Positions 14,914 to 57,272 of a stretch of DNA of 64,000 bases are shown here, piece by piece; the first letter of the stretch is position 1; the number at the start of each line of letters is the position of its first letter. The DNA is from Somniosus microcephalus (Eukaryota). The position numbers and the translations under genes are program-made. The stretch covers positions 201,810,001-201,874,000 of the forward strand of contig CM126213.1 in the NCBI GenBank assembly GCA_052327205.1, written 5' to 3'. Under the pieces are notes generated by a model that had not been told where the DNA came from, did not search any database, and saw nothing but the letters and a program-made list of their open reading frames with translations.

Positions 14914-14985
14914 TCAGAAAGTAAGCGCGTAGGGAATGTTTAAGAGGGTGACTTTTTAGTATTATGTTCAAGATAGACTGTATTA

Positions 14986-27736: not shown

Positions 27737-27757
27737 TTAGTGTCCGCAGACACATGA

Positions 27758-28270: not shown

Positions 28271-28314
28271 CTCTGTGCTTTCTGGAATGGTCCCATTGCT
28301 AGACGGCACTGGTG
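28271..28314 (-). CDS. CEACAM-like receptor, cytoplasmic exon 3
   Basis: ttttgtctttacag|...|gtaaaa, 44 bp, phase 1-0. Translates (T)PVPSSNGTIPESTE. A downstream terminal exon was not identified. Confidence 0.6.
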
Positions 28315-30546
28315 CTGTAAAGACAAAATGCACATATATTATTAGTCATAATATCACCTGAAGAAATTTGAGGTTTCAGTGATGCTGTGCTCTTGTTGGC
28401 CAAGCTTCCTATTTCCCCTCCAAAAATGTTCACACATTAGGGCTTAATCTGCTTAATATGTAGATTAATAGGAAAATAATAGGATTTTAAAGCTAAGCTG
28501 TCAAGATTTCTCCATGACTATTGCCAACAGCGTTCTGCTCAGCTGGCAGGAGGTATAATTAAACCACTGCAAACTGCTCTTTAGCAGATCTTCCATTGCT
28601 GCTTTCAAATTTTGTGTAAATCTCTCACTAGTTCATTCTCCCAAACTAAGGGGAACCACCTTTGAACTAGAGACACCCCTATGGCTCAAGTTGGAGCTGC
28701 AGGTGAGGAGTTAAGAGGTGTTGATGAGCCTAGCATTGTTAATTTAGTATGAATAAATACAACAGTATATATGTAGAGTGACCACTCAAAATCGGCTCAA
28801 ACGGTTAAAAGAGAACATACTTAACAATCCTCCGAACACCATTATCCTTCTTAAGTTACATTGCTTTGATCATTTCTCATAAGTGTTTAACTAAAGATGG
28901 CAGCCATACTTTCCCATTTTGCGGAAGGCATGTACTTCAATTAGTTTTATAAAATTGTACGCCATTTGTAAGTTGGCTGCTTTACACAAGATGCTTTTGT
29001 TGTTGGTTGGCATTTCCTGTGAAGAAAAATCTGGAGAAAAAATTCTAAAAAATCAAATTCAAGTTATGTCGTATCAAGTCTTGTTCCATTTTCATATGAC
29101 GTTATATGGAAAACGAACAGTGAAATAATTTATCTGCATATTATTTTATGTCATGGCTGGGAAATATAATATTTCAAATATAAAATAATGTAATATTACC
29201 AAACTAGCAGGAGAGGTAACACTATCCTTGTCAACTAACACATTTCTCCCAGGGGTGCACTTTTGTTAGGATGAACTGCCTCCAACCAGTGTATTTGCAG
29301 CTTATGGCTGGTTATTAGGGATCCAGTGTCTGGAACTTAGTCAATAGAGGCATACTTCCGAGTCAAGGTGAGCACTTAGTCTATAGCCTCGACAAAATCC
29401 TTAGGTGGGATCCCTATGGCCCAGTTGACTGCTGCCTATAAGTATGCTAGGAGCCCACCTCTGTCACACAGATACTAGTGGCTGTCATAGTGGGTATTAT
29501 ACAAATACAGTTACAAGCTGCATGATATGCCATATTGAAGGCTTTATGGAGATGCATCCAAGCAGTGCAACTGTTTTTCCCTAGTAACACCAAAAACTGG
29601 CAAATAATCCGTGATCATCAGTAGATCAGGCCATCCTGGCATGTAGATCAGAATTGTTGGCGATCCTTGATGCACTCAGGAATGCATATGGCTTTGTACA
29701 AGATTGTACAATGTTGTATAGCTAATATAAAACCTACTTATATTGCTTTAATTTATCCTCTTAACTATATCTGACTGCCCTACCTTTGCCAATGGCTGGG
29801 GAAGGTCCTTAAAAACAAATGAGTGCATTGCTATTCAAAAATCGTAGCTGGCTCCAATGGCACATTGGTTCAGGAGCAGAGATTATCCATGGGTATCAGA
29901 AAGCAGCACCACTTTATTTCATTTCCTATATGATCAAGCTACAATTGTAGCACTGGCATGATTCGCCAGTTTGTACACCCCTGTGATAAGCTTCCATAGC
30001 CCTTAGTCAATCTGTTCTAAAGTGGGAAGCATTACACATTGAATAAAGAATTAACATACTTTCACTGATCCTTTTGAAATGCAAGTCGCCCATTTCACAC
30101 TAGACCAGTTTTAGCCACATCATCTCCTAACCCATCTCTATTGAAACACAAATTTATTGGTAAAAAGGACTAGGGTAGTAAGAGACCAAACCAAACAATA
30201 ATAAAGAATCCTACAAAACAATGAATCATAATACAGATGCAACCTTATTAGAGATGACCAACATTGCAACTGTGAATAGGTCATAATGATACAACCATAA
30301 ATAATAGTTGATCCATAAAAATGTACACTTCTTGCTTCAGTAAGAATTCCACACCCTTGCCTGCTGAATGCCTGCAGTAGAAATATATTAGCTCTTCAAC
30401 TGAACAATCATGATGTCTTTTCGCTACTCTGAGTTGGTAGAAGGAATGCAAAATCTGTGCATAATGGGAGCCATCAAATTGACCTTTTATAAAGAAGCAG
30501 GAAATATAAATTAGGAAAATAAAGACATTGATGCAAATGTACTTAC

Positions 30547-30603
30547 TTTGATTGTAGGGCGGTTTTCTTTCAACTGTTGCATACTCTGTTTGTGATGAAG
30601 GGG
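30547..30603 (-). CDS. CEACAM-like receptor, cytoplasmic exon 2 with ITSM (TEYATV)
   Basis: tctttcaacacag|...|gtaagt, 57 bp, phase 1-1. Translates (T)PSSQTEYATVERKPPYNQ, containing TxYxxV. Confidence 0.75.
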
Positions 30604-30848
30604 CTGTGTTGAAAGATATAATACAGCTTTGAGCTAAACATGTGCCGTTGTCAAATATTTGCAAGCTGGCATCAACCTTTGTTGTCTACTGATAGTGGTA
30701 TGCGAGTAGTTTATTTGCAAAGCATGATATTGTTAATGCATTAGTTTCTGTTATTCAGGCGCAGAAATAAGGGTTAAAAAAATTAATAAGAATTGCTGAA
30801 ATTTGCACTGGCATAGCGGCATGGATAATGCGGAACTATTTTACTTAC

Positions 30849-30901
30849 TGTTTCCTGGTGAAGCCATTTTGATATCATTTTGTTGTGATCCACCTTTCGC
30901 C
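30849..30901 (-). CDS. CEACAM-like receptor, cytoplasmic exon 1 (53 bp)
   Basis: cattttag-type acceptor (attcatttag|) and |gtaagt donor; phase 2-1, matching the TM exon and the next exon. Translates (R)AKGGSQQNDIKMASPGN. Confidence 0.7.
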
Positions 30902-31447
30902 CTAAATGAATATTACATAATAGATGGGCTTGTAGGTTTCTCAGCAGAATTTACATTCACTAAATATATGATTCACAGCCAAGGTATATGTTATATTTAT
31001 TAATAGCCTCACAATATTAATGAGAACTGTTAGATTTTACTGATGGGCACCAAAAGTTCATGAATACAGAAGCAGATGTTTCTAATATATGTGTTGATAT
31101 GTATAAACAGAGTCCAGCAAAAATATTATTGGAGCGAAGTACTTCAAATGACGGTGACAGGTAACGGAGGACTGTATAATCATTATCTACAACTCAGTGC
31201 TAGTACTGCAGATGTTTCTGGTTATCAACGAATGACGAACATGCTCACCACCACTTCAGGGTGTTATAATGTAGAGTCAAGGTCAAGCAACTACTGTTAA
31301 AGAGCCAATGTAAAGTAATATACATCTTCCATTTCTTACCATCTCATCATTTCTTGAACCCAATAGAGTTGTTCAGAAAAATGGCAATGGTATTTGTTAA
31401 ATATCCAATTCAACACTGGCTGCATGCAAGATTCTGTTTATTTAAAT

Positions 31448-32121
31448 GGGCTGTTTATTCCGAGCATATTCTACGTGCTGTGTACACACCCGTAGGGACA
31501 TCGGAAATGCCGGTTTCTGTCAAGATCGGACGCCTGCCCTGGAGAATGGCCAGCGGACAGAGAGTTCCGCTTTGTGGAGAACCTTCGCCCACAGAAAACC
31601 CCGAAAATTCTTACGCTTGGTAAAAGCAGCATAAGAGTTGAAAAAAGTCAACAAAAATTTTTTTTTCCCCCACTCATTTATCATTTAAAAATACTTTTTA
31701 AAAAGGTAAGTTTATTTATAGTCCCGTAAAAAACTTTATTTTTTTCAAAAAATTAAATTTTGTTTAAAATATTTAATTTATTGTAATTTCAACTCATTAA
31801 AAAAATTTGATTAAAAAAAATATTTAATGTTTTACAGTACTATGTTTTTGGGGTGATCTCCATTCATATATTTGACAGGTCTATCTGTCCAGTGTATGAA
31901 GGGAGATTCCCTTCTCCTATTGGCTCCCCATGGCCCACGTGATCCCCGGGATGCTTGCGAACCACATGCGCCTCTCGGATACGTCGGCCCTGCGTATTTC
32001 GAGTTTGGAGAGGCCCAGGAGCGGAAGTATATGCGCCTTGGGAGCCCTCAGGTAAGTCCGTAGATTTTTCCTGATCGGAGGCCTCCGCATGCAGGAAGCC
32101 TCCGATCGGAAAATATGGGCC
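31448..32121. mobile_element. Non-autonomous Harbinger-like DNA transposon
   Basis: gggc...ggcc ends, AAT 3-bp TSD; its right end is homologous (inverted) to 58571-58850. Confidence 0.65.
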
Positions 32122-32667
32122 AATATCTAAATCTGTAAAAACCTAGGGCAATATTTATTACACCCATTTTATTCCAATCACTTGTGTACAATTTAGAATA
32201 GAATTAATATATTTTATTTGAAATAAATCAATATAAAATGTTCCCACAGAATGAAGGATATGCATTACATATTCGTAAGTGGGTAACAAAAAAATGAAAA
32301 TAACAAGAACAAGTGTCTGACAAATAATGATAACCCTAATTCAGAGAAATAGAAAGGCAGTGGAATATGGAACCAAATGGAAAGGAAGTATCGGATTTCT
32401 AGCACTTTACCAGTTTTCCTGTTTGTGCTATTTCCAAATGCCTCACTTTACATAATATTTGTGCCAGCTTTAAGGCTGTACAATAGAAAAGTGATTCAGT
32501 ATTGTATTTACCTGCAGAAGTAAGTAAATAAGGTATAAAAGCTGAGGAACTGATTTAATTTTAAAATACTAAATTAAATTTTAGTTGATATCCCCAAGTT
32601 ACTTTAGTGACCATATTTTTTTTAAAGTAATAACTCAAATGCCACATGGGTAATTTCCTGAGTGTTT

Positions 32668-35600
32668 CTCTCTTCCCCCCCAGTCGCTCTCTCTTCCCCC
32701 CCACTCGCTCTCTCTCTTTCCCCCCACTCGCTCTCTCTCTTTCCCCCCACTCGCTCTCTCTCTTTCCCCCCACTCGCTCTCTCTCTTCCCCCCCACTCGC
32801 TCTCTCTCTTCCCCCCCAGTCGCTCTCTCTTCCCCCCCACTCGCTCTCTCTCTTCCCCCCCACTCGCTCTCTCTCTTCCCCCCCACTCGCTCGCTCTCTT
32901 CCCCCCCACTCGCGCTCTCTCTTCCCCCCCCACTCGCTCTCTCTCTTCCCCCCACTCGCTCTCTCTCTTCCCCCCCCACTCGCTCTCTCTCTTCCCCCCA
33001 CTCGCTCTCTCTCTCCCCCCCCACTCGCTCTCTCTCTCCCCCCCACTCGCTCTCTCTCTCCCCCCCACTCGCTCTCTCTCTTCCCCCCCACTCGCTCTCT
33101 CTCNNNNNNNNNNNNNNNNNNNNNNNNNNNNNNNNNNNNNNNNNNNNNNNNNNNNNNNNNNNNNNNNNNNNNNNNNNNNNNNNNNNNNNNNNNNNNNNNN
33201 NNNNNNNNNNNNNNNNNNNNNNNNNNNNNNNNNNNNNNNNNTCTTCCCCCCCCGCTCTCTCTCTCTTTCCCCCCCCCCGCTCTCTCTCTCTTTCCCCCCC
33301 CCGCTCTCTCTCTCTTCCCCCCCCCCGCTCTCTCTTCCCCCCCCCCGCTCTCTCTCTCTTCCCCCCCCCGCTCTCTCTCTCTTCCCCCCCCGCTCTCTCT
33401 CTCTTCCCCCCCCCGCTCTCTCTCTCTTCCCCCCCCGCTCTCTCTCTCTTCCCCCCCCGCTCTCTCTCTCTTCCCCCCCCGCTCTCTCTCTCTTCCCCCC
33501 CCGCTCTCTCTCTCTTCCCCCCCACTCGCTCTCTCTCTTTCCCCCCCCACTCGCTCGCTCTCTTCCCCCCCACTCGCGCTCTCTCTTCCCCCCCCACTCG
33601 CGCTCTCTCTTCCCCCCCCCACTCGCTCTCTCTTCCCCCCCACTCGCTCTCTCTCTTCCCCCCCACTCGCTCTCTCTCTTCCCCCCCACTCGCTCTCTCT
33701 CTTCCCCCCCACTCGCTCTCTCTCTTCCCCCCACTCGCTCTCTCTCTTCCCCCCCCACTCGCTCTCTCTCTTCCCCCCACTCGCTCTCTCTCTCCCCCCC
33801 ACTCGCTCTCTCTCTCCCCCCCACTCGCTCTCTCTCTCCCCCCCACTCGCTCTCTCTCTCCCCCCCACTCGCTCTCTCTCTTCCCCCCCACTCGCTCTCT
33901 CTCTTCCCCCCCACTCGCTCTCTCTCTCTTCCCCCCCCCGCTCTCTCTCTCTCTCTCTTCCCCCCCCGCTCTCTCTCTCTCTCTTCCCCCCCCGCTCTCT
34001 CTCTCTCTCTCTCTTCCCCCGCCGCTCTCTCTCTCTCTTCCCCCCCCGCTCTCTCTCTCTTTCCCCCCCCCGCTCTCTCTCTCTTCCCCCCCCCGCTCTC
34101 TCTTCCCCCCCCCGCTCTCTCTTCCCCCCCCCGCTCTCTCTCTCTTCCCCCCCCCGCTCTCTCTCTCTTCCCCCCCCGCTCTCTCTCTCTCTTCCCCCCC
34201 CCGCTCTCTCTCTCTTCCCCCCCCGCTCTCTCTCTCTTCCCCCCCCGCTCTCTCTCTCTTCCCCCCCCGCTCTCTCTCTCTTCCCCCCCCGCTCTCTCTC
34301 TCTTCCCCCCCCGCTCTCTCTCTCTTCCCCCCCCGCTCTCTCTCTCTTCCCCCCCCCGCTCTCTCTCTCTTCCCCCCCCCGCTCTCTCTCTCTTCCCCCC
34401 CCCGCTCTCTCTCTCTTCCCCCCCCCGCTCTCTCTCTCTTCCCCCCCCCGCTCTCTCTCTCTTCCCCCCCCGCTCTCTCTCTCTTTCCCCCCCCGCTCTC
34501 TCTCTCTTTCCCCCCCCGCTCTCTCTCTCTTTCCCCCCCCGCTCTCTCTCTCTTCCCCCCCCCCGCTCTCTCTCTCTTCCCCCCCCGCTCTCTCTCTCTT
34601 CCCCCCCCCCGCTCTCTCTCTCTTCCCCCCCCCGCTCTCTCTCTCTTCCCCCCCCGCTCTCTCTCTCTTCCCCCCCCGCTCTCTCTCNNNNNNNNNNNNN
34701 NNNNNNNNNNNNNNNNNNNNNNNNNNNNNNNNNNNNNNNNNNNNNNNNNNNNNNNNNNNNNNNNNNNNNNNNNNNNNNNNNNNNNNNNNNNNNNNNNNNN
34801 NNNNNNNNNNNNNNNNNNNNNNNNNNNNNNNNNNNNNNNNNNNNNNNNNNNNNNNNNNNNNNNNNNNNNNNNNNNNNNNNNNNNNNNNNNNNNNNNNNNN
34901 NNNNNNNNNNNNNNNNNNNCCCCCCCGCTCTCTCTCTCTCTCCCCCCCCGCTCTCTCTCTCGCCCCCCCCCCGCTCTCTCTCTCTCTCTCTCTTCCCCCG
35001 CCGCTCTCTCTCTNNNNNNNNNNNNNNNNNNNNNNNNNNNNNNNNNNNNNNNNNNNNNNNNNNNNNNNNNNNNNNNNNNNNNNNNNNNNNNNNNNNNNNN
35101 NNNNNNNNNNNNNNNNNNNNNNNNNNNNNNNNNNNNNNNNNNNNNNNNNNNNNNNNNNNNNNNNNNNNNNNNNNNNNNNNNNNNNNNNNNNNNNNNNNNN
35201 NNNNNNNNNNNNNNNNNNNNNNNNNNNNNNNNNNNNNNNNNNNNNNNNNNNNNNNNNNNNNNNNNNNCCCCCCCGCTCTCTCTCTCTCTCCCCCCCCGCT
35301 CTCTCTCTCGCCCCCCCCCCGCTCTCTCTCTCTCTCTCTCTTCCCCCGCCGCTCTCTCTCTNNNNNNNNNNNNNNNNNNNNNNNNNNNNNNNNNNNNNNN
35401 NNNNNNNNNNNNNNNNNNNNNNNNNNNNNNNNNNNNNNNNNNNNNNNNNNNNNNNNNNNNNNNNNNNNNNNNNNNNNNNNNNNNNNNNNNNNNTCTTCCC
35501 CCCCCGCTCTCTCTCTCTTTCCCCCCCCCGCTCTCTCTCTCTTCCCCCCCCCCGCTCTCTCTTCCCCCCCCCGCTCTCTCTCTCTTCCCCCCCCCGCTCT

Positions 35601-36941
35601 CTCTCTCTTCCCCCCCCCGCTCTCTCTCTCTTCCCCCCCCCGCTCTCTCTCTCTCTTCCCCCCCCCGCTCTCTCTCTCTTCCCCCCCCGCTCTCTCTCTC
35701 TTCCCCCCCCGCTCTCTCTCTCTTCCCCCCCCGCTCTCTCTCTCTTCCCCCCCCGCTCTCTCTCTCTTCCCCCCCCGCTCTCTCTCTCTTCCCCCCCCGC
35801 TCTCTCTCTCTTCCCCCCCCCGCTCTCTCTCTCTTCCCCCCCCCGCTCTCTCTCTCTTCCCCCCCCCGCTCTCTCTCTCTTCCCCCCCCCGCTCTCTCTC
35901 TCTTCCCCCCCCCGCTCTCTCTCTCTTCCCCCCCCGCTCTCTCTCTCTTTCCCCCCCCGCTCTCTCTCTCTTTCCCCCCCCGCTCTCTCTCTCTTTCCCC
36001 CCCGCTCTCTCTCTCTTCCCCCCCCCGCTCTCTCTCTCTTCCCCCCCCGCTCTCTCTCTCTTCCCCCCCCCCGCTCTCTCTCTCTTCCCCCCCCCGCTCT
36101 CTCTCTCTTCCCCCCCCGCTCTCTCTCTCTTCCCCCCCCGCTCTCTCTNNNNNNNNNNNNNNNNNNNNNNNNNNNNNNNNNNNNNNNNNNNNNNNNNNNN
36201 NNNNNNNNNNNNNNNNNNNNNNNNNNNNNNNNNNNNNNNNNNNNNNNNNNNNNNNNNNNNNNNNNNNNNNNNNNNNNNNNNNNNNNNNNNNNNNNNNNNN
36301 NNNNNNNNNNNNNNNNNNNNNNNNNNNNNNNNNNNNNNNNNNNNNNNNNNNNNNNNNNNNNNNNNNNNNNNNNNNNNNNNNNNNNNNNNNNNNNNNNNNN
36401 NNNCCCCCCGCTCTCTCTCTCCCCCCCCGCTCTCTCTCTCTCTCTCCCCCCCCCGCTCTCTCTCTCTCTCCCCCCCCGCTCTCTCTCTCNNNNNNNNNNN
36501 NNNNNNNNNNNNNNNNNNNNNNNNNNNNNNNNNNNNNNNNNNNNNNNNNNNNNNNNNNNNNNNNNNNNNNNNNNNNNNNNNNNNNNNNNNNNNNNNNNNN
36601 NNNNNNNNNNNNNNNNNNNNNNNNNNNNNNNNNNNNNNNNNNNNNNNNNNNNNNNNNNNNNNNTTCCCCCCCCGCTCTCTCTCTCTCTCTCTCCCCCCCC
36701 GCTCTCTCTCTCTCCCCCCCCGCTCTCTCTCTCTCTCTCCCCCCCCGCTCTCTCTNNNNNNNNNNNNNNNNNNNNNNNNNNNNNNNNNNNNNNNNNNNNN
36801 NNNNNNNNNNNNNNNNNNNNNNNNNNNNNNNNNNNNNNNNNNNNNNNNNNNNNNNNNNNNNNNNNNNNNNNNNNNNNNNNNNNNNNNNNNNNNNNNNNNN
36901 NNNNNNNNNNNNNNNNNNNNNNNNNNNNNNNTCTCTCTCTT
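32668..36941. repeat. Polypyrimidine/polypurine minisatellite (~20-23 bp units), with seven N gaps
   Basis: Units tt(c)6-9actcg(ct)n and tt(c)7-10g(ct)n; gaps indicate that the true length is unresolved. Confidence 0.95.
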
Positions 36942-36966
36942 CCAACAACAACATGCCCTCGAAAAA

Positions 36967-36996
36967 GCCTCGGCACTGCCGGGCACCCCCTGCTAG
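36967..36996 (+). mobile_element. Helitron-like 3' terminus (hairpin + CTAG)
   Basis: gcctcggcactgccgggc hairpin, 8 nt spacer, then CTAG followed by T; CR1 sequence starts immediately after. Confidence 0.55.
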
Positions 36997-38100
36997 TACT
37001 TTTATATATTGTACGTCTTGCCATAAAACCCAGTGTTCCATTGGCTTTTTTATGGCCTTATCCATTGGAGGCACTGCTTTTAATGTCTTGTGAACGTTAA
37101 CACCCAAATCCTTCTGCTCATCCACATCACCCAGCCTTCCCCCATTCAAAGTATAAAATTTTACTTATTTTGTACAAAAATGTACTGCCTCACATTTACT
37201 GACATTGAATTCCATCTGCCATTTTTTTCCCCATCCCACCATCTTATAACTATCGTCTTGCAGATTTATTTGGTCCTCAATGATTTACTATGGTTGGTAT
37301 TTTAGTATTGTATAAAAATTGGACACTGCTTTATAGTGCTATAGCGAAATCATTTAACAGTGAACAAAAGCGATCCCAGAACACCACTTGTGTCACCATT
37401 ACCCACTTCCAATCACTTTCAGAAATTGCCCTTCACTCCTACTCTCTTTCTCCCTTCTAACCTGTTTTAATCCAATTTGCTATCCTCTCCCCTAATTTCA
37501 TATCCCTTAATCTGTAATAGTCTGCTGTGTGGTGCCTTGTCAGAGGCTTTCTGAAAGTCCACGTATACCACACCCACTGCATTTCCTCTGCACTCTTTTC
37601 ACTTTTACTTTTTTCAATCAGCAAATTTAGAGATTGTGTTCCTTATACTACAGTCTATATATACCGAGAACAAAAGTGGACCCAGCACTGACCCCAAGGG
37701 TGTGCAACCTATCTCCAGTTCAAGCAACATATATTTATTTATCTTTGTTTCATGCTGCTAAATTCCCTTTTATACCATAAGCCTTAAATTTTTCAGAAGT
37801 CTCTTATTGAAAAGCTTCTGAAAACTCAAACACTACATCTACTGTATTCTTTTTAGGTCTACATCTACTGCATTCTTTTTAGGTCTCCAATCAGTCAAAA
37901 TCTATTCATGTTTATTAATTTCATCTTGAATTATAGATTCTTAGAGTTTGCCCACAGCTGATGATCAACTAACTGGTCTATAGTTATTCTTCTCCCTTTT
38001 CTTGAACAAGGGTGCAAGTGACTATATTCCAGTCCTGTGGTACAATTTGCAAATTCAAAAGTTGCGATTGGAGCCTCCATATCCTCTCTGACTATTTTCA
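36997..38100 (-). mobile_element. Old CR1 RT remnants
   Basis: EQKDLGVNVH, ANGTLGFMAR and DFQKASDK-like fragments on the minus strand. Confidence 0.65.
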
Positions 38101-39239
38101 TCTGTAATTGATTCAGGCAGAGAATTCCACAACCTAGATATTTACATTAATGTAAACATATGCAAATGACAGAATTATATCATCTGATGTATTTTCTGAC
38201 ATTGGTGCTGTAGCAACAATAGATACAGGGGATATGCGATCGTCCCTAGTGTCCAACATATGCCATAGTCGTGCAGGAGGGATTTTAATTTTTAATTTTC
38301 CTAAAGCCAGCGTGGAAGAAGCAAACACCATCAATAAGATCATGGCTGATCTTAGACCTCAACTCCACTTTCCCGCCCAATCCCCATAACACTTGATTCC
38401 CCCAAGAGTCAAAACATCTATCGATCTCAGCCTTGAATATACTCAGACTCAGCATCCACAGCCCTCTGGGGCAGAGAATTCCAAAGATTCACCACCCTCT
38501 GAGTGAAGAAATTCCTCCTCATCTCAGTCTTAAATGGCTGACCCCATATCCTGAGACTATGCTCCCTAATTCTGGACTCTCCAGCCAGGAGGAAAACAAC
38601 CTCTCAGCATCTACCCTTTCAATCCCCCTCAGAATTTTATATGTTTCAATGAGATCACCTCTCATTCTTCTAAACTCCAGAGATTATAGGGCCAATCTAC
38701 TCAATCGCTCCTCATAGGACAGCCCTCTCATCCAGAGATCAATCAAGTGAACCTTCATTGCGCTGCCTGTAAGGCATGTATGTCCTTTCTCAGATAAGGA
38801 GACCAAAACTGTGCACAGTACTCCAGGTGTGGTCTCACTTAAGGAGTAAGACTTCCTTACTCTTATACTCCAACCCCCTTGCAATAAAGGCCAACATGCC
38901 ATTTGCCTTCCTAATTGCTTGCTGTAGGTACACGCTAACTTTATGTGTTTCCTGTACGAGGACATGTAAATCTCTCTGAACACCAACGTTTAATGGTTTC
39001 TCACCATTTGAAAAATATTCTGTTTTTCTATTCTTCCTACCAATGTGAATAACTTCACATTTCCTTTCATTATCCTCCATCTGCCACCTTATTGCCCTTT
39101 TACTTAACCTGCCTAAATCCCTTTGCAGGCTCTTGGTGGCCTCCTCACAGCTTACTTTCCCACCTAGTTTTGTATCATCAGCAAACTTGGATACATTGCA
39201 CTCGGTCCCTTCATCTAAGTCATTAATATATATTGTAAA

Positions 39240-40134: not shown

Positions 40135-40413
40135 TAGCTGAGGCCCAAGCACTGATCCTTGCGGCACCCTACTATTTACAGCCTGCCAACTGGAAAATGA
40201 CCCGTTTAACACTACTCTCTGTTTTCTGTCCGTTAACCAATCCTCTATCTGTGCTAATATACTACCCCTGACCCCTTATCTTGTGTAGCAACCTTTTATG
40301 TGGCACCTTATCGAATGCCTTTTGGAAATCGAAATATACTACGTCTACTGGTTCCCCTTTATCTACCCTGCTAGTTACATCCTCAAAAAACTAATAAATT
40401 TGTTAAACACTAT

Positions 40414-47664: not shown

Positions 47665-47860
47665 GTAGAATTTACAGCACAAAAAAACAGGCCATTTGGC
47701 CCAACAGGTTTATACCGGTGTTTGTACTCCACACGAGCCACTTCCCACCGTACTTCATTTCACCCTATCAACATATCCTTCTATTCCTTTCTCCCTCATG
47801 TACTTATCTAGCTTTCCCTTAAATACATATATGCTGTTCACCTCAACCACTCCCTGTGGT
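47665..47860 (-). mobile_element. CR1 3' tail fragment
   Basis: tagaatttacagcac...aggccatttggcccaac, typical CR1 tail on the minus strand. Confidence 0.7.
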
Positions 47861-49199
47861 AGGTTTCAGCTTTTGGTTAAACCTGTACTAAATCATTGTT
47901 TAAAATACAAACAGGGAAAGATAATTAATTCCTAGATCCTTTCTGTGATAGTCAAATATGGAAAAATGTCTATCACAAACACTGCAGTATAAAAGGTATT
48001 ATAAACATCACACCAATTCCTCCAAAGGCCATATTAGAACTCTTTCAGCCACTGAGGAGGTTCCTTTGTTTCCATTTTAAATAGGCTCACCAAAAAGCAA
48101 ACCAACACAAATACTGCTGATCTATATATACTGTGTGTGTATTTAAATAGCTTTCTTTTAAATCTGGGGCTTTAATAAGGGTTGTTTAGGAAATGGGCAT
48201 GTTTAACAATAAAATATGAGTATGAAATTTCAGGACAAAAAGACACTGGTGCTTCCTCTGCATTAGGAGTGGTGTTTTAACATGCAAGGTTTTTGTTGTG
48301 TATGACACATACACAATTAATAGATTGGAAGCCTTGTTGCTAGATATAGGCCATTGGACTAATTAGCTTTATTTTTAGTGTTATGCATCCCTAGTACTGC
48401 CAGTCAGGTAAGGCAATTATTTATTTTGCAATGATCTACATGTGTGCAGTCAATGGTATCTCAGATCTTGCGAAATGCTTGTAATGGTGCAACATTGTCT
48501 CCATCTCTGCAATTGTTGATGAGCTCCTTTGATGAAATAGTCCAGTGGCTAAAAAGGCAGGACAGCTGTGGACAGAGGCAGAGCGCTTCTGGTAACAGAG
48601 GAGATCGTTAAAAGACCTCTGCTAGTATTTAACACAGTTCAGTATTTGTCTCCCTTGAACCTCTTGCATCAGTCCAATATAAAAGACACTCTGGCCTCGA
48701 AGAACATTCTCTTTGGGATATTGTCATTGCTAGAGAGTTCTATGACAACAGAAATTTGTAATTTCAGTCTCCAGCACACAGGTTAGCATTATTGTTTTGA
48801 CTGTTGCTCACAGGCAGGTAAATGGAATTGAGATACAGATCAGCCACAATCTCATTGAATGGTGGAACAGGCTCCTTCTGTTTATATGTTCCTATTTACA
48901 TCTCGAAGTCCTTGTTTCTTTAGATTTGGGAAAGAGGTACAGTAAAACTCCCAGCTACATTTTTATTATGTGATCGCTACGTATATTTTTACTGGGTTTT
49001 GAGCATCCTAATTCCTGACCAGTTCTAACAGTGAGCAAACATAATAAGAAACCATTTGGCATAAACTAGTGGCCATTTATGGCATGGTAGATGAGAAATA
49101 TATTTCCAATTCAGAGGACTTATCCGCAAGTCTAAAATGATCAATGGTGCGAATTGAGCACCACAATCAAGCATGAGTGCTCTATTAAGAAAGGGTGCA

Positions 49200-49772
49200 A
49201 TGTCATGTATAGAGACTTGACCAGACCCCATCTGGAGAACTGTGATCAGTTTTGGCACCACACCTCAGGAAGGATATATTGGCCTTGGAAGGGGTGCAGC
49301 GCAGATTCGTCAGAATGATACCAGGGCTTAGAGGGTTAAATTACGAGGACAGGTTGCATAAACTTAATCTTCTATACTCAAGAGAATACAAGCTAAGGGG
49401 GTGGTTTGATTGAGGTGTTTAAAATATTGGAAGGATTCGATAGGTTAGATACAGAAAAACTATTTCCTATCATGGAGGTATCAAGAATGAGGGGACATCA
49501 TCTTAAAATTAGAGCTATGCCATTTAGGAGGGAAATCAGGAAGCACTATTTTTACACATAGGAGTAGAAATCTGGAATTGTCTCTCCCAAAAGGCTGTGG
49601 ATGCTGGGAAAAGTGGATATTTCAGGACTGAGATTAATAGATTTTTGTTGAGTAAGGGTATCAAGGAATATGGAGGGTAAATGGAGTTAAGGTATAGATC
49701 AGCCATTATCTAATTGAATGGTGGCACAAGCTCAAGGGGCTGAATGGCCTCCTGTGTTCCTATGTTCTTATG
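49200..49772 (+). mobile_element. CR1 3' fragment
   Basis: RPHLENC, RKDILALEGVQRRF and tail ctatgttcttatg. Confidence 0.8.
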
Positions 49773-50031
49773 GGGTTAAAGTCATCAGAAAGAAATATTT
49801 CTATTTTTATGGTGCTGTAATTTTTTCTCTAACAACTTCTATTAAGATAAAGAAATATATATTTTGCCTCATATTAGTGATGGCCACAGCCTGCACATGT
49901 AGCTACTAGGGATTTGGCATATTGAGTGCTAGGGTAAAATAACGATTGAATTAAACAAAAATTAAAAGTAATCATAAGTGGGAAACCAAACATAAACTTG
50001 TAGCTTCAAAGTACAGGTGTGAAATCATATA

Positions 50032-50655
50032 GGCCGCGATTTTGCTGACCTCAGCAGATTCGTGGTGGGCAAAGTCGGTGGCAGGTCCCGACCCCGCTGC
50101 TGGCTCCAACCCACTGTCTGAAATGAATTTACCTTGATTGGGCTTGTTAATCCCGCCCAGCGCGTTTCTCAGCCAATTAGAGGAAGCGGATCAGGTGACG
50201 TCATTTGATAATGCGTCAGCCGGTTTTCTTAAAGGGACCATGGTCAAATTTATTTTGACATTTGTGCTGTTGGTGTTCTACAGCATTGAGTTGCTACAAA
50301 CACTGACAATCACTGCACAAAGGCACAGGGCTGCACCCAGGCTCTCCCATGACTCCCTGCTTATGCTTTTGGAGGGAGTCACAGCACGCAGGGAGGTCCT
50401 CTTCCCTTCCCATGGGCAGAAGAGGCCTCCCCAGGAAATCAACACAGCCTGGTTGCACATAGCAATGATCTCTAAACAAGGTCATAATTTCCTGAATTGG
50501 GTCACCTGCCGCTGTGTGTCGTGTCTGCTTAGTGCTGATAGACCCAACATCGGGGAAAGGCACGTGGCAGCGGGGTCCCGACCCGCTGGGGGGGGAAAAA
50601 AACACCCAACCCACCACCAATCGTGCCCGCTGACCCCCCCCGGAAAATCTCATCC
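50032..50655 (-). mobile_element. Short non-autonomous Harbinger retaining Myb/SANT N-terminal coding sequence
   Basis: ggccgcgatttt...aaaatctcatcc with flanks ata/aca; ORF 50138-50719 contains RAAPRLSHDSLLMLLEGVTARREVLFP...AWLHIA. Confidence 0.75.
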
Positions 50656-51117
50656 ACAAATTCTACTGAACAAGAATCATTTAAACTCTCTCTTGCGAGA
50701 CTTATTCAGATCAAAGTAGAAACATGTTTTTAATGGAACTATAATCATAGAAAGCATAATAACCCTAATACAACCTTAGTGCCAGCACAAATTGACCTGA
50801 ACATAGCTCAGAAGGTTCAATTGGGCACAAATTCCACCACTGAATTTGGTTTGGAAATAAAGGCAGGGAGATGGGGGAAGTGATTCTGTGGGGAGCAATT
50901 GATAATGAATAAATGCAGACAGTAGGTTAAGTGGTGTTTAAAACACGAACCATAAATTAAGAATTGAACAAATAACTGGAAACATACTCTACAAATTCTG
51001 ACATTTGGAAAGCGAAACAGAAATGAATTGTATAATGAATCTATTTAATTTCAGGTTGCCATGTCTATAGGGAAAAATAATAAAGATGTCTGTAAAATTT
51101 GAATGTAATGTATTCAC

Positions 51118-51244
51118 CTGTATGTTTTCTTCTTGATCACCCATACAATTATCCCAATGATGATCGCAAGAATAGCAAGAACTGCAATCACTATGCCTGC
51201 TATGGCACCACCAGATAATTTGTTTTTATCAGGTTTAGGTTGTT
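51118..51244 (-). CDS. CEACAM-like receptor, transmembrane exon
   Basis: Strong acceptor ttttttttccag|, donor |gtgaat, 127 bp, phase 1-2. Translates (E)QPKPDKNKLSGGAIAGIVIAVLAILAIIIGIIVWVIKKKTY. LSxGAIAGIVI matches the CEACAM1 TM start; basic stop-transfer KKK follows. Confidence 0.9.
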
Positions 51245-52106
51245 CTGGAAAAAAAAGAAAATAATGAACATAATGACCATACAGTAGAGTATCAAAATGT
51301 AATGCAAAATATATTGAATTTTGTTCTTCAATTTTATTGCTTCCATTTCAAGAGATATAAAGAATGATTGATTGAATCCTACATAGCTAAATGATGGGAT
51401 CAACTCATTATTAAATAACTTTGCAAAACAGAATCAATATGAGTAGGCTCTGCAGCTTTTATTTGCACCATTGAGGCAGACACACATGACCCAACAGCAG
51501 AAGTCACATCTAACTGATTTGGGGATTCATATAAGGTAAGTGTCACAACATATGGCACCAAAAGGGGACATGATAGGAAATACTGTAAAGTGAAAATCAC
51601 CACAAAGAAAAAATATGAAGAATGGGGGAGGGGAGCACACATCAATTATCTTACTGCTCTTTTTTTAAAAAAAGTATGGCTGGCTATTGCTGTGCCTTTT
51701 GATTGGACAATCATGAATGAAGAGCATCTAGGAGAGTTTTTGCTGTTCAAAATACTCCCATTTCTGTACAAGGAGGAATGTTGATGAAGATCTCCCTTGC
51801 TGAGGCTGCGATATTAATGTCCCTGACTGCCTAGAGTGAAAATAGTGGAAAGCAGTATTTCAAAGCTGCCCGGGAAACCATGATGCATGTTAAGAAATTT
51901 GCATTTTTTTGGCTGGAATTATTGAGTTCCTGGTTGCCTGGTCTCTAACAGTCCTCTAGCTGGTTTGATGTTGTTCTCTGCTGTTTTTAAATTGAGCTGT
52001 TCCAGTGTGAGGACACTTCCCATGAGTGACCACCAGAATACTTAACAATGGAAATTAAAAAAAATTAAAAAAATCGGGTAATTTTGTTTAACAGGCGACT
52101 GATCCA

Positions 52107-52620
52107 GGATGACCCCGAGCTCCCAGTCGCCTGTCATTTTAATTCACCGCCCAATTCCCACTCAGACCTCACTGTACTCAGACTCTTGCATTGTTCCACG
52201 TAAGCTTGAGGAACAGCACCTCATCTTTCGATTGGGCACTATACAGCCTTCCGGACTCAATATCGAGTTCAACAATTTCAGATCATAACCTCGGCCCCCA
52301 TTACATTTTTACTTATTTTTTATCCACACCTTTGTTTTGGCCCTTTTTTCCCCCCCCCTTTTTTTCTCTCCCACATGGCAGCTGTCTCCCATTCTGCCAG
52401 CGCATTTCACACCTAATCTAGAGCCGTCTTTTGTCTCCACTAGTCCTATCACCATCTCGTCTCGTTTTGAATACCTCTTAATGTCACTTCACTTCTCTTT
52501 TGTTCTCTCCCAGCCTGGCCTTCAGTCTTGACAAAGGGTTTGACCCGAAACGTTGACTCTATTTTCTCTCCATGGATGTTGCCTGGCCTGCTGAGTTTTT
52601 CCAGCATTTGCTGTTGTTAT
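52107..52620 (+). mobile_element. Penelope-like retroelement 3' fragment (GIY-YIG C-terminus + pLTR)
   Basis: ELPVACHFNSPP.SHSDL...RKLEEQHLIFRLGTIQPSGLNIEFNNFRS*; flanked by a 10-bp direct repeat gactgatcca (52097-52106, 52621-52630). Confidence 0.85.
52524..52558 (+). ncRNA. Minimal hammerhead-ribozyme-like motif (degenerate core)
   Basis: agtc-ttgacaa-a-gggt ttg accc-gaaa-cgtt-gact. Confidence 0.5.
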
Positions 52621-52929
52621 GACTGATCCACTATGTCATTTTTATGCCTGAGCGGCAAGTTGAAAATCTTACCCCCATGTCTTGTTTAATCATATAAGAG
52701 AAAAGAATAAGATATGTTGATTGGGTTAGGTGAAGAAGGGTGGGAGGAGGCTCATGTGGAGCCTAAGTACCGGCAGGGACCAGTTGGGCCGAATGGCCTG
52801 TTACTGAGCTGTAAATACAATGTCATATAGTTCAGGAAATTGAGCTATGATTGATAGTCATTGTCCATCTATGTGGTGCAGTGTATTAAGTATTACATAT
52901 TATGCCACTATTATATTATCATTACAATT

Positions 52930-54050
52930 GCAGCTGTCAGGAGGGATGATATGCTGGAAGGATCATCATATGGGTTGAACTAAGGAACAAAAAAGGGTAG
53001 ACCGCCAAACAGTCCGAGGGAGATAGAAGTGCAAATATGTCGGCAAATTTCTGAGAAGTGCAAAAACAATAGGGCAGTAATAGTTGAGGATTTCAACAAC
53101 CCAAATATTAACTGGGATAAAAATCAGTGTAAAAGGTATAGAAGGCACAGAATTCTTAAAATGAATTCAGGAGAACTTATTTTAGCCAATATGTAGCAAG
53201 CCCAACAAGAGAGAGGGAGTAGTTCTGGACTTAGTTTTAGGAAATGAAGCTGGGCAGGTGGAAGGAGTATCAGTGGGAGAGCATTTTGGTGGTAATTCAG
53301 TTAGATTTAGCGCAGTTATGGAAAAGGACAAAGATAGACCAGGAGTAAAAGCTCTCAATTGGGGAAAGGCCAATTTTACTAAGCTGAGATGTGATTTAGC
53401 AAAAGTGGACTAGAAACAGCTACTTGAAAGCAAATCAGTGTCAGAGCAGTGGGAGGCATTCATTCAAGGAGGAAATGGTGAGGGTTCAGTGCAAATATAC
53501 AAAGAAAAAGGGTGAGTCTCCCAAATCTGGAGCCCTCTGGATGCCAAGGAGCATATAGGGTAGGATAAGGCCAAAAAGGGAAGTTTATGTCAGATACCGA
53601 GAGTTCAATACTGCAGAAACCCTAGAGGAGTATAGAAAGTACAGGGGTGAAATTATAAAAGGAAATTAGGAAAGTAAAGAGAGGGCATGAAAAGATATTG
53701 GCAAATAAAATCAAAGAAAACAAAATATGTTTTATAAATACCTAAAGCGGCTAACTAAGGAAAGATTAGGGCCTATTAGAGAGCAAAAAGGTAACCTGTG
53801 TGTGGAGGCGGAGGATGTTGGTATAGTTCTTAATGAATACTTTGCATCTGTCTTCACAAGAGAGGGGGATGATGCAGGAATTTTAGTTAAGAAGGATGAG
53901 TCTGAAATATTGGATGGGGTAAAATAGTGAGAGAGGAAATATTAAGGGGTTTAGCACCTTTGAAAGTAGATAAATCTCCAGACCCAGATGAAATGTATCC
54001 CAGGCTGTTAAGAGAAGCAAGGGAGGAAATAGTGGAGGCTCTGACCATCA
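52930..54050 (+). mobile_element. CR1 ORF2 fragment (APE to pre-RT)
   Basis: VLDLVLGNE, LNEYFASVFTRE and KVDKSPDPDEMYPRLL. Confidence 0.8.
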
Positions 54051-54355
54051 TAACATGATTAGTGTGCAAATTTTCAAGGGATTAAAATTATTTTTATCTT
54101 TAACCAGCAAGGATGGACAATGGGGAAACCATTTCTGGGATCAGTTTTTTTGAATCCTCCTTAAACCTGATGAATTTTGCCCTTTGGGACCCGAGCTGCT
54201 GAAGGATATCTTTACATTACTATCCGAGATCTGCATTTGGGTCTAAAACCATTGGATGCTGTGGTTACACAGACGAGTTTGGAAGATTAAATGACAGTGC
54301 CCATCTTTAGTGTCTCTGGGAAGTGGGAACCAATTGGCAGCAATTGCTAAAAATG

Positions 54356-54947
54356 GGTGCCTAGAAATTGGATTGTGTTGTGCCCATTTTACAGATGTAA
54401 AATAAGTGCCCAAGGATCCAATATGGCGGGCAATGTGTGCATGCACATTCCACGCCATAAGTGTGCCGCTCGCCATATTGGCACATGCCTGAAACAGGCG
54501 CTAAGCCCCCTATTTGCATCTGCAAAAGGATTAACACCTGTTGGAAACCTCCTTTGCTAATTTCAACTGTGATTGCTGTGGTCAATTTCTTTACGCGCTT
54601 GGCAGCCAAACCAAATTAAAGGAACCGCTGGTGGCTGCCACCTAAAAGTTAAGTTTGAACTTTTTAAATTACCTTATTGTGGAACCTGGAGGAGCAAGAG
54701 TGCTCTTCCCTGCCCCACATTAAATCAGCTCCGCTCCTGCTGACTCTCCGAAGGACCTCAGCCGGGGTCCAAGCTAGTTCATTTAGCTTCCCCAACGCCG
54801 CCCCACCCACAACTGCCTCTGGGGCCGCCACTGCCACCTGCAGCTGGCTGGTGGACCAATTTTGCCGTGGTCCTGCTGCTGGCCTCATGTAGCTTGCGCC
54901 GCACCAGAACTGCGCCCCAATTTAGGTGCGATCCAATTTCTAGGCCC
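54356..54947. mobile_element. Harbinger-type MITE
   Basis: TIR gcctagaaattggat / atccaatttctaggc; atg on both flanks. Confidence 0.72.
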
Positions 54948-55676
54948 ATGTATGGCTGCAGCCTTAATTATCAATTTCTTTGCACTGGTAAGTCCTCAAT
55001 GTTGGATAATGAGGTTCTTTACTTCAAAGTGATGTATTTCCTTGCTGGTTCTCAGAGCATTTGAATAAAGGCAAGCATCAGTGCTAGTTATACAGGTTAG
55101 TTTTAGCATTTTTCCCTTTAAAACACACAAAATAGTTCAACCGAGCCTAGTATAAATCAGGCAGGAAAGGTAAATCAGATATTTTTGCGAAAAATTCATT
55201 TTGCTGGTCTGCCCCAGGATTACACAAAACTGAGATTCTCCTTTAGGCATACTTACTGGAGGAAATGTAAACTAAAACATTGAGGTCAACTTGTTATGCA
55301 TAGATTGCTTTTGTAAAAATTTACTTCCAGAAATATGTGTTTTTTTTTTAATTACGAGATTATCCCCGACAAATTTGAGATTGTGAGACTTACAGACAAG
55401 CCAGAAGCTGGTTTTAATCACGAAATAAGTATCATTGTTACAAGATAATGCCATAAAAATACCCTAAATGTGACCAGCTAGGCGATTGTTTACATGCTCA
55501 TAAGCGCATTCTTTCTATTACAATCCGATGATCTTACCCATAGTGTAAACTATTAATTTTTTTATATTAAAATACAAAATTCACACAACTTTCAATTTTA
55601 AGAGTTATTTTTGCAAACAAAATAGGAATGCAAAAGATGTCTGTTTAAGATCTTTAGAACACAGATCAGTCACAAT

Positions 55677-55885
55677 TATAGAATCATAGAATGGTTACAG
55701 CAGAGGAGGCCATTCAGCCCATCGAGCCCGTGCCAGCTCTCTGCAAGAGCACTTCAGCTAGTCCCACTCCCCTGCCCTTTCCCTGTAGCCCTGCAATTTT
55801 TTCCCTTCAGGTACTTATCCAATTCCCTTTTGAAAGCCACTATTGAATCTGCCTCCACCACCCTTTCAGGCAGTGCATTCCAGAT
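55677..55885 (-). mobile_element. CR1 3' tail (same subfamily as element A)
   Basis: Uninterrupted version of 20755-20852 joined to 26806-26920. Confidence 0.8.
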
Positions 55886-56644
55886 TAATTGCTACTATTT
55901 AAATAAAAGCATAGCTAATGCAAGAAATCTGAAATAACAAAGAGCATCTTTAAAATCCACAGGAAGTCCATCAGCGTTTATAACGAACAGAGCTATTTTC
56001 TCTACTTTTTCTCTTTACAGGTGTTATTTTTATTTCAGGTTGCCAGAATTTTCTGTTTTTACTTAAATTGTTGTAATTGACTACAAAATCGGCTCGGTGT
56101 GTATTCTCAGCATCAGGTTTCTAACTGCAAGGATTTATCTAGACTTGCTGAAATAATCAAGTTTGTGATTTCCAAGGATGCAGATCAAGTTAAAGCCGCT
56201 TTGGGCTCACAGAAGTCCAGAAGATAGTCTACAAGCATGAATTAAAGTGCAACTTGCAGTAAATTACTGAGTTTCTGAGGCAATAGAACAGAAACCGTAG
56301 TAAAACAGCATTCTGGTATAGCCGATGGCCAGTATAGCCTGTTCTTGAAAGCAGGTTACCAAAGGTTTTCTCAAAACTGAAATGAAACTTTATCTATTGC
56401 TATAGATGTAGATGGAGAAACGAAATGAACAGGTATGTGTCTAAGAAGTAAATTCCTCAGGTTATGTGTAATGTCTTTAGGACTTATCCAACCTCAATAG
56501 TCAAACACTTGAATCATATATCATTATGAAAATCTTAAATGCAATTTTTTTATTACTAAGTTACAAAGAACAATATAAATCCGTAAAATAAAACCCATGC
56601 AGTTACAATTCTGTTAAAATGATCTTAGTGAATTATTTACTTAC

Positions 56645-56902
56645 CTTGTACAGTTACCTGTACAGTAGCATTACTTCCTTTTTTGGTTATGATGTTTTTA
56701 ACCTGACAAGTATAGTTCCCACCATGATTTGAGCTTACTGAGTCAATGCTGTAAGTTTGTTCTGTCTTTAACAGATTGGTTCCATTGTACCATTCATAGG
56801 CACCAGCTGGGACTGATAGAGCAGAACAATGAAATGTAAGAGCTTTCCCCAGTTCTGCCAAAACTGACCCTGAAGGTTCAATAATGACGTTCTCTGGTCC
56901 AT
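56645..56902 (-). CDS. CEACAM-like receptor, IgC2 (B-type) domain exon
   Basis: tttttgtag|...|gtaagt, 258 bp, phase 1-1, after a 94-bp intron. Translates (Y)GPENVIIEPSGSVLAELGKALTFHCSALSVPAGAYEWYNGTNLLKTEQTYSIDSVSSNHGGNYTCQVKNIITKKGSNATVQVTVQ (inside ORF 56637-57086). The YGP junction is typical of CEACAM A-B pairs. Confidence 0.9.
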
Positions 56903-56996
56903 CTACAAAAAATTCAAGAAAATGTGGTTTTTGTATAACTAAAATAATCATTAATATTAAATACAAACTAATGCTTTGAGCTCCCTGCATACTTAC

Positions 56997-57272
56997 AATT
57001 AATTTGCAGGATGGTGTCTCCAGAATCGCTGCTAAAATCATTGCTTGCATTACATTTATATGTTCCTGAATCATTTCTGTTAACACTGATTATAGTCAGT
57101 GTAACATTGTCCGGAGAAGTTATTATTCTGTCATTATCCTGGGCAGCTCGGTCATTCTTAAACCAAATCCGTGACTGTACAAAGCCCGAGGCGTGACAAG
57201 TCAGTAAAATAGTATCGATGTTTTCTACTGGTTTTGAATTGTTGGCCGATACAGTGACATTAGAAACCGGTT
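56997..57272 (-). CDS. CEACAM-like receptor, IgC2 (A-type) domain exon
   Basis: Minus-strand exon tttacag|...|gtaagt, 276 bp, phase 1-1. Translates (E)PVSNVTVSANNSKPVENIDTILLTCHASGFVQSRIWFKNDRAAQDNDRIITSPDNVTLTIISVNRNDSGTYKCNASNDFSSDSGDTILQIN. Has Ig Cys/Trp/DxGxYxC and the CEACAM A-domain-like NNSKPVE and N.TLT...V.RND motifs. Confidence 0.9.

Follow-up and report, generated by a model that had tools for sequence, protein, structure and literature searches.

The window analysed here, a 64,000-nt stretch of contig CM126213.1 from Somniosus microcephalus (GCA_052327205.1; 201,810,001-201,874,000 of the forward strand), holds on its minus strand the rear part of a 16-exon shark CEACAM gene of ~1060 residues. 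Six of the exons lie in the window. The foremost two encode the membrane-proximal pair of IgC-like domains: an A-type exon (57272-56997, 276 nt, phase 1-1; Pfam Ig_3, E 9e-14), whose PDB matches are headed by CEA, with CEACAM1 third and fourth, and a B-type exon (56902-56645, 258 nt, phase 1-1; Pfam Ig_2, E 5e-12). The transmembrane exon follows (51244-51118, 127 nt, phase 1-2) and has 15 further matches in the genome, which are merely 47-57% identical to it. The cytoplasmic tail then begins with a 53-nt exon (30901-30849, phase 2-1) and continues with an extra 57-nt exon that carries the ITSM TEYATV (30603-30547, phase 1-1) and a 44-nt exon (28314-28271, phase 1-0). An earlier note on this DNA had chained these six exons in phase between canonical splice sites and had read out the tail. 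AG/GT ends are present at all six, and all the ends and phases, as well as the tail sequence as originally written, were confirmed. The exon set itself was incomplete, as the six exons are real, while nine more lie upstream and one downstream, all outside the window.

The joining of the tail exons was observed in spliced contigs from three organisms, two of which reach the membrane exon. In run X13, a contig of depth 55 lacks two GT-AG introns, 30604-30848 and 28315-30546. Its loose end past 30903 is, on comparison by eye, the reverse complement of the membrane-exon end, and the transmembrane exon is thereby joined to the 53-nt exon. X13 is not recorded as an RNA run, and it may derive from the very sample that was assembled. 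The same two joints were found in run X1, from a different organism. In run X8, from a third organism, 57 letters connect 28314 with 30849, and the loose end is membrane-exon-like. Seven reads of the RNA run X17 span 28314/30547, all sharing one start. The spliced link of the 51118 exon to the 30901 and 30603 exons, on which the earlier note had staked its gene model, is seen in the contigs, through the joints of X13 and X1 and the membrane-exon end of X13. The X13 contig is 802 nt long, consistent with the 801 nt expected if the Ig-Ig and Ig-membrane exons are also joined. In-frame skipping of the 57-nt exon is possible.

The remaining exons were located on both sides. Acceptors below 28271 gave weak candidates (27709 and others) for a last exon within the window; these were set aside, as the loose end of the spliced contig pointed ~53 kb downstream, where the last coding exon was traced (C12:201785241-201785357, minus strand, one genome match). 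It is of phase 0, as had been predicted for a terminal exon below 28271, and its 38 codons and stop include the motifs VVYAQP and TDYAEL. The last intron is therefore ~53 kb in total, positions 1..28270 being its part in the window. Upstream, seven further IgC exons (C12:201880462-201904926) and a leader with a cysteine-free N exon (C12:201911286-201911839) were found on the minus strand, where leader and IgV exons had been expected beyond 64000. All nine IgC-like A/B exons are open and of phase 1-1. In order, the gene encodes a leader, a single IgV N domain free of cysteine, nine domains of IgC-like type, a membrane-spanning segment and a tail spread over four exons. Each tail exon has one match in the fetched cluster. 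A second gene with this tail was found neither across 1.46 Mb nor genome-wide, a result that leaves aside divergent CEACAM-like genes past extended position 960 kb. Judged by its sequence, this gene is the sole one in the cluster with such an inhibitory-type tail.

The N domain of CEACAMs characteristically lacks the Ig disulfide. The N exon of this gene has no cysteine, and a lone cysteine occurs in just one of the 16 N exons aligned. Its best PDB matches are CEACAM1 and CEACAM6. The Pfam V-set score of 22.6 bits lies below the cut-off of 26. The E-values of the PDB matches are modest (1e-5 in the single search, 3.5e-9 in the profile search), and JAM-A and CD2 are among the weaker ones, which might suggest a protein of another Ig family, such as JAM, CD2/SLAM, HEPACAM or CD22. 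However, CEACAMs fill the top 14 PDB ranks in one search and the top three in another, and the cysteine-free N domain, the A/B alternation, the 53-nt exon and the split ITAM of the neighbouring genes fit a CEACAM. The database names of the relatives also agree: with E<=1e-10 as the limit, the A exon of the window matches 26 proteins, every one of them chondrichthyan, and by name 24 of these are CEACAM-like, one is PSG-like and one hypothetical. Membership of another Ig family is, hence, very improbable. The earlier proposal of a chondrichthyan CEACAM1-like signalling receptor with an ITSM is supported. As for synteny, which in the family includes LIPE, TMEM145, TOMM40 and neighbours, LIPE and a TMEM145-type match share this contig with the cluster at a distance of 25-27 Mb, and none of the 11 Porin_3 matches (a check for TOMM40) is on this contig.

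Of the three tyrosine motifs in the tail, TEYATV has an exon to itself, and VVYAQP and TDYAEL share the last one. TEYATV satisfies the strict ITSM consensus TxYxxV/I, whereas TDYAEL counts as an ITSM only if the definition is widened to TxYxxV/I/L (PMC3958483). With Pro at +3, VVYAQP does not conform to the ITIM consensus, and this residue is the same in all the long-tail relatives compared. Thus, the strict ITIM and ITSM pair of CEACAM1 is not present. When the 96-residue tail is shuffled 100,000 times, TxYxx[VI] turns up in 4.3% of the results. The hexamer by itself is weak evidence, and it is the conservation of the motif that gives real support. A 24-nt degenerate pattern for the 57-nt exon has a single exact match in the genome. 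Four elasmobranch genera, one of them a ray, have the exon, and it is missing from all 16 long-tail gene models of six galeomorph genera; the last-exon tyrosines are conserved more widely.

Of the six ITSM positions, TEYATV shares five with the TE(pY)ATI of PD-1 (PMC7078208), and in both proteins QTEYAT is followed by an aliphatic residue (PMC7078208 and a passage of PMC12151841). The two differ in that their ectodomains are unrelated and that the shark motif lacks the aromatic residue which, in the same passage of PMC12151841, is described as conserved after the motif in PD-1. The likeness is probably convergent for SHP-2. The residue at pY-1 is Glu in TEYATV and Asp in TDYAEL, neither of which is hydrophobic. 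The earlier note had also foreseen binding of SAP/EAT-2-type proteins, and a SLAM-type switch can be envisaged, where binding of SAP or EAT-2 to TEYATV would convert the receptor from an inhibitory into an activating one. The motif fits the strict consensus and is retained in four genera including a ray, and ITSM signalling can proceed via SAP, as a section of PMC2832619 has it. Nevertheless, the motif follows PD-1 in having Glu (pY-1), Ala (+1) and Thr (+2) around the tyrosine. Parts of PMC12151841 state that the phosphorylation-independent binding of SAP requires a hydrophobic residue at pY-1, argue that a SAP switch is unlikely for PD-1, and describe SHP-2 binding residues as conserved across jawed vertebrates. 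The exon is also missing from all the long-tail models of the six genera mentioned above. Such a switch is, hence, improbable, and with a PD-1-like Glu at pY-1, SHP-2 is the likelier partner of TEYATV.

A long/short switch may also exist. The 53-nt exon has the length of the frame-switch exon 7 of mammalian CEACAM1 (as given in a portion of PMC11646291). In silico, skipping it terminates the reading frame, as the alternative frame of the 44-nt exon contains a stop that would end a short-tail isoform. The membrane exon spliced directly to the 44-nt exon would give a short form free of tyrosine motifs, like CEACAM1-S. A matching short tail is found in the gene models of six relatives, from which alone the form is known, none being seen in the sequencing runs aligned at the locus.

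The CEACAM1-type gene faces 16 membrane exons of a second, ITAM type, and 14 of these are on the plus strand, the opposite orientation of the kind that permits conversion between CEACAM pairs. Four open tail exons accompany eight of the 16, and in all eight the first YxxL of the ITAM is split by a phase-0 intron, a hallmark of CEACAM ITAM partners (PMC5112662 and an excerpt of PMC2832619). These tails are conserved in other sharks and one ray. As the four ITAM exons follow in frame, splicing is preferred over a turtle-type read-through of the paralogue membrane exons into a stop, read-through forms being possible besides it. Only four of the eight open-tailed genes also have open ectodomain exons, and the other eight tails are broken or incomplete, so that much of the cluster may be pseudogenes. 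N domains 91-95% identical to that of the CEACAM1-type gene occur on genes with an ITAM tail.

A 696-bp leader-to-N block of the CEACAM1-type gene is 98.6% and 98.1% identical to the blocks of two ITAM genes, and just 87-90% like those of sibling ITAM genes. Its 1-kb flanks have no homology to the flanks of the two genes except for a repeat, whereas the flanks of the two ITAM-gene blocks align to the siblings at 78-90%. Such identity amid unrelated flanks is a signature of gene conversion, and the tract goes no further than the N donor site. In the ITAM gene that matches best, the A donor is broken and the B exon frameshifted, and the gene would be functional only with both exons skipped. In each of the four species that have both types in the tree, inhibitory N domains fall with the ITAM N domains of their own species, at 93-98% identity, while the N domain of this gene is 60-64% identical to those of three orthologues. 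The pN/pS is 1.46 for the N exons (120 non-independent pairs of 16 exons, all paralogues of this genome) against 0.53 for six A exons. It rises to 1.83 at positions 29-58 and 2.19 at 88-98 of the N exons, values not counted as evidence because these ranges were chosen after the variation was seen.

Alternatively, the gene could serve chiefly as a receptor in epithelial adhesion or metabolism, and the ITAM cluster could for the most part be debris of neutral duplication, kept alike by ordinary ectopic recombination, with no pathogen-driven decoys. Many paralogue exons are indeed broken, non-immune roles of mammalian CEACAM1 are described in part of PMC13278318, and a 15-kb tract of the CEACAM1-type gene, introns included, is 95-97% identical to a neighbour, so exchange is not confined to N. 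However, neutral homogenisation does not account well for the excess amino-acid change in the N exons, the halt of the 696-bp tract at the N donor site, the ITAM tails kept in other sharks and a ray, or a pairing by species that was found again in all four species having both types in the tree. This reading is unlikely.

The spliced CEACAM1-type gene is, with good probability, the inhibitory half of a paired-receptor system with ITAM decoys. By analogy with the family, its N domain would engage itself, other CEACAMs or a microbial adhesin, after which the tail would be phosphorylated and SHP-2 or SHP-1 would dock through both SH2 domains, damping activation; the PD-1-like TEYATV would likely occupy the C-terminal SH2 domain of SHP-2. 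Gene conversion would keep the N domains of the brake and of its ITAM neighbours matched, so that a microbe binding the brake would also trigger an activating, CEACAM3-like decoy. A broader history can be offered tentatively, though we lean slightly against it. The whole CEACAM1 toolkit, comprising one inhibitory receptor, the long/short switch with the 53-nt exon, and ITAM decoys whose N exons are renewed by gene conversion, may have existed before cartilaginous and bony fishes diverged. In ancestral elasmobranchs the receptor may also have had an exon for PD-1-like docking of SHP-2, later lost in three galeomorph orders, with the decoys here forming an expanding and diversifying germline repertoire in which many have decayed in their IgC exons and approach the N-membrane-ITAM form of CEACAM3. 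From the locus and the pairing by species in other sharks, the brake-and-decoy design would date to the root of jawed vertebrates, as probably would the long/short switch. A natural test of an added ITSM is offered by sharks that are related to one another and differ in the presence of this 57-nt exon.

The gene had been called hidden and easily missed by annotation, which, judged by the models of relatives, does not hold. Models of Heptranchias (XP_067831361), Pristiophorus, Heterodontus and Pristis in RefSeq/UniRef already hold the tail and its small exons and are its orthologues; the tail region of Heptranchias is near-identical, and the last exon is identical at 30-33 of 38 positions in the three sharks among them. 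Their automatic name, 'CEACAM5-like', suggests the GPI-anchored CEACAM5, and the records describe neither motif nor pairing. The gene itself is therefore already in the databases, and much of the above is what specialists would expect. Pathogen-pressured CEACAM pairs are described in mammals, frogs and reptiles; in the literature searched, no description of shark pairs was found, and for cartilaginous fishes only skate ESTs were reported. The locus unites an inhibitory gene, ITAM partners, an inverted layout and a conversion tract in a shark, and the species-wise pairing is likewise seen in three other sharks.

Several features recur in known systems. In passages of PMC2832619 and PMC11646291, mammalian CEACAM1, with CEACAM3 as its paired decoy, has the same order of leader, N, IgC, membrane and tail, and CEACAM1 is a single inhibitory gene in its cluster with two tyrosines on the last exon. 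The same passages give a YxN motif in marsupials, found here on tail exon 2 of the ITAM genes, and a conversion in dog CEACAM1/28 that centres on the N exon and takes in the leader and intron 1. Four tail exons with the split YxxL are likewise those of mammalian ITAM partners (part of PMC2832619). Unlike mammalian CEACAM1, the shark gene has four tail exons instead of three, with the ITSM exon added, a Pro at +3 in the first last-exon motif, no TEHKxS motif in the 53-nt exon, nine IgC domains instead of three or four, and relatives whose modelled short forms go directly to the 44-nt exon. Among the group 1 and 2 ceacam paired receptors of Xenopus (PMC5112662), an ITIM/ITSM gene is also opposite in orientation to ITAM genes, N exons undergo gene conversion, and paired N domains share 80-93% identity; those of group 1 reportedly lie closest to the N domains of fish. 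Xenopus tails may hold an extra ITSM exon as well. The shark cluster differs in not adjoining lipe.

A 6.4-Gb genome was searched, in which the window (G000:C12:201810001-201874000) holds the rear part of a shark CEACAM gene. As the earlier note had read, six exons with canonical splice sites follow one another on the minus strand, and their AG/GT ends and phases agree with that reading. These are two IgC exons (57272-56997, A-type, and 56902-56645, B-type), both of which pass the Pfam Ig cut-offs, the membrane exon (51244-51118) and three small cytoplasmic exons of 53 nt (30901-30849), 57 nt (30603-30547, with the ITSM TEYATV) and 44 nt (28314-28271). The phase-0 terminal exon expected below 28271 and the leader and IgV exons expected beyond 64000 are also present. 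A loose contig end below 28271 led to the last coding exon, 53 kb downstream on the minus strand (C12:201785241-201785357; phase 0, 38 codons, with VVYAQP and TDYAEL), which has one match in the whole genome. Upstream of the window, the same strand carries seven further IgC exons (C12:201880462-201904926) and a cysteine-free IgV (N) exon with a 52-nt leader (C12:201911286-201911839). Together, the 16 exons span 126 kb and encode about 1060 residues in a single open frame.

For splicing, four sequencing runs were mapped to 28120-31150, of which X17 is the only one recorded as RNA, while X13 is possibly the assembly's own sample. An X13 contig (802 nt, depth 55) jumps both GT-AG introns separating the three small exons, and the exon order is matched in contigs from two other organisms (X1 and X8). 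In the X8 contig, 57 unaligned letters stand at the place of the ITSM exon. Seven X17 reads, all from a single start, cross one exon joint. Of the five junctions predicted earlier, the two between the small exons are spliced in X13, X1 and X8, and the membrane exon is reached by the loose end of the X13 contig past 30903, as compared by eye. A contig with the two upstream junctions (Ig-Ig and Ig-membrane) joined should measure 801 nt, which the 802 nt of X13 fits.

Contigs of X13 also cover nearly all of the intron between the ITSM and 44-nt exons (28285-30410) at a depth of 3-10, and X1, X8 and X17 each cover patches of it; the intron between the 53-nt and ITSM exons has no coverage in the mapped runs. 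The covered intron may be retained or mark an alternative 3' end, and parts of it are about 90-95% conserved in the other organisms.

The sequence places the gene in the CEACAM family, as was earlier proposed. The top 14 PDB matches of the N exon are all CEACAM1 or CEACAM6, and a profile of 16 N exons finds CEACAM1 at E 3.5e-9, with JAM-A ranking fourth. All 26 protein matches of the A exon are from sharks or rays, the closest (Pristiophorus) being 89-91% identical; this points to a shark, probably a squalomorph, as the source of the genome. As regards synteny, LIPE and TMEM145-type matches lie on the same contig but 25-27 Mb off, and no Porin_3 match was found on that contig. The gene is not classed as a strict CEACAM1 because the three-exon tail, the consensus ITIM and the TEHKxS motif have no match; it is probably the shark counterpart of CEACAM1. 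It can hardly be called hidden, as the earlier note had it, since orthologues with the same tail are already in RefSeq/UniRef under the label 'CEACAM5-like'. The available text of earlier papers reports only skate ESTs for CEACAM in cartilaginous fishes (PMC3628338, PMC4079198) and cites ITIM/ITSM CEACAMs in 'fishes' as unpublished (PMC2832619). The shark cluster, its pairing and the ITSM exon were found undescribed among the literature matches listed, a coverage mostly outside subscription papers.

By analogy with its family, the gene is predicted to work like CEACAM1. Engagement of the N domain would lead to tail phosphorylation, and the phosphorylated tail would then recruit SHP-1/SHP-2. 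TEYATV matches QTE(pY)ATI of PD-1, as given in the part of PMC7078208 available. According to the accessible portion of PMC12151841, Thr at -2 together with Ala at +1 and Thr at +2 favours the C-terminal SH2 domain of SHP-2, and the residues with which SHP-2 binds are conserved throughout jawed vertebrates. From the same source, Glu at -1 makes a switch to SAP unlikely, so the SAP-type binding suggested earlier for the ITSM appears improbable from its sequence. All three tail motifs have Ala at +1, which is tied to SHP-1 recruitment by ITIMs (PMC8631942, in part). Against the predicted mechanism, TEYATV lacks the downstream aromatic residue of PD-1, and VVYAQP is no consensus ITIM. TDYAEL is an ITSM only under the wider definition in the available text of PMC3958483.

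The ITSM hexamer alone is weak evidence: when the 96-residue tail was shuffled 100,000 times, TxYxx[VI] turned up in 4.3% of cases. The tails of 39 relatives' proteins were surveyed, leaving out five rows that form an ITAM cluster, one protein that lacks a membrane span and one that is unrelated. QTEYA[T/A]VERK is present in 10 of 26 long-tail models, from four genera (Heptranchias, Pristiophorus, Heterodontus and the ray Pristis); the other 16, from the six genera Scyliorhinus, Mustelus, Carcharodon, Cetorhinus, Chiloscyllium and Hemiscyllium, are without it. The simplest reading of these sequences is that the ITSM exon would be ancestral in elasmobranchs and lost in three galeomorph orders. 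Exon skipping or missed annotation in the six genera is a possible explanation instead of loss. Models with and without the segment never occur within one genus, and no exon-skipped or short form was seen in the four runs over 28120-31150, where contigs drop rare variants. Six other models, from six genera, stop four residues past the membrane-exon junction (RTGAI, RTSAI, RASAI and similar), which is what the gene itself would produce if its membrane exon were spliced to the 44-nt exon. The mammalian CEACAM1 short form arises by skipping of the 53-bp exon 7 (PMC11646291, in the part available), and the shark exon at this place is also 53 nt. A short-tail form of the gene is predicted.

In the 1.46 Mb examined around the window, 16 second-type membrane exons lie at about C12:202.01-202.73 Mb, 14 of them on the plus strand. 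Behind eight of them come four tail exons that are all open and have GT or GC as donor; these tails end in YxxL-x7-YxxL, a phase-0 intron splits the first YxxL, and most carry YEN on tail exon 2. A four-exon tail with a phase-0-split YxxL is the CEACAM ITAM layout in the accessible text of PMC2832619 and PMC5112662. Judged by sequence, three genomic features of CEACAM paired receptors appear in the shark cluster. Four of the eight genes have open ectodomain exons too; in the other four, A or B exons are broken and in-frame skipping would be needed. Among the latter is the ITAM gene whose N exons match best; with such skipping it would be an N-membrane-ITAM receptor like CEACAM3, or else it is a pseudogene.

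Signs of gene conversion are seen in a 696-bp block of the gene that begins some 130 nt ahead of the start codon and ends shortly beyond the N donor. Two blocks in an inverted ITAM gene match it at 98.6% and 98.1% identity, and intron 1 within it matches at 183 of 184 positions. The 1-kb flanks of the ITAM-gene blocks find nothing alike in the gene save a repeat. These flanks are 78-90% identical to four sibling genes, to which the 696-bp block is only 87-90% identical. A separate 15-kb tract, introns included, shares 95-97% identity with the nearest neighbour gene. A tree built from 29 N domains groups inhibitory with ITAM forms by species in all four species having both, with identities of 98/103 here, 103/105 in Pristiophorus, 98/105 in Carcharodon and 99/104 in Mustelus. 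The gene's N domain is 60-64% identical to those of three orthologues, and the last exon matches at 28-33 of 38 residues in five sharks, 18/33 in Chiloscyllium and 16/37 in a ray. The relatives' gene models could be chimeric; the case for gene conversion within this genome rests on DNA. The pN/pS ratio is 1.46 for the N exons (120 non-independent pairs from 16 exons) versus 0.53 for six A exons. Of the four signs of pathogen pressure set out in the available part of PMC13278318, three are seen here; for the fourth, which is dN/dS between close species, there is only a proxy.

Several other features of the contig were observed. Leader-N cassettes repeated in tandem every 4 kb (L040 and L061, C12:202.26-202.28 Mb; L071-L074, C12:202.38-202.41 Mb) sit in an apparent 120-130-kb duplication. 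The leaders inside these arrays measure 51 nt and do not keep the frame, so that 5-7 N domains may follow one another in each gene. Divergent CEACAM-like genes (L111-L138, C12:202.78-203.05 Mb; N 37-52% identical), one of which, on the minus strand near C12:202.87 Mb, has both a membrane exon and a split ITAM of its own, possibly form a second subgroup, as in Xenopus. The nearest ITAM gene has a SINE-like repeat (L008:3900-4130) right in front of its leader, where a shorter open leader of 46 nt is left. More Ig exons, 34-38% identical to the A exon, lie at G000:C12:201.07-201.12 Mb, 205.09 Mb and 206.32 Mb.

The introns also hold repeats. A 35-bp tandem array (L002:1600-4700), common to the inverted neighbour, falls within the near-identical 15-kb tract. 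The 20-kb intron following the membrane exon contains a C/T-rich minisatellite of more than 4 kb (window 32667-36931; 22-23-bp unit, several N runs). Inside the 53-kb last intron, plus-strand Gag-pol-like frames with stops (4669-8027) belong to an LTR retrotransposon of Ty3/Gypsy type, the family being judged by eye. A degenerate minus-strand frame at 17530-17910 resembles a Harbinger-type transposase, and X17 has a few stranded reads in its bin.
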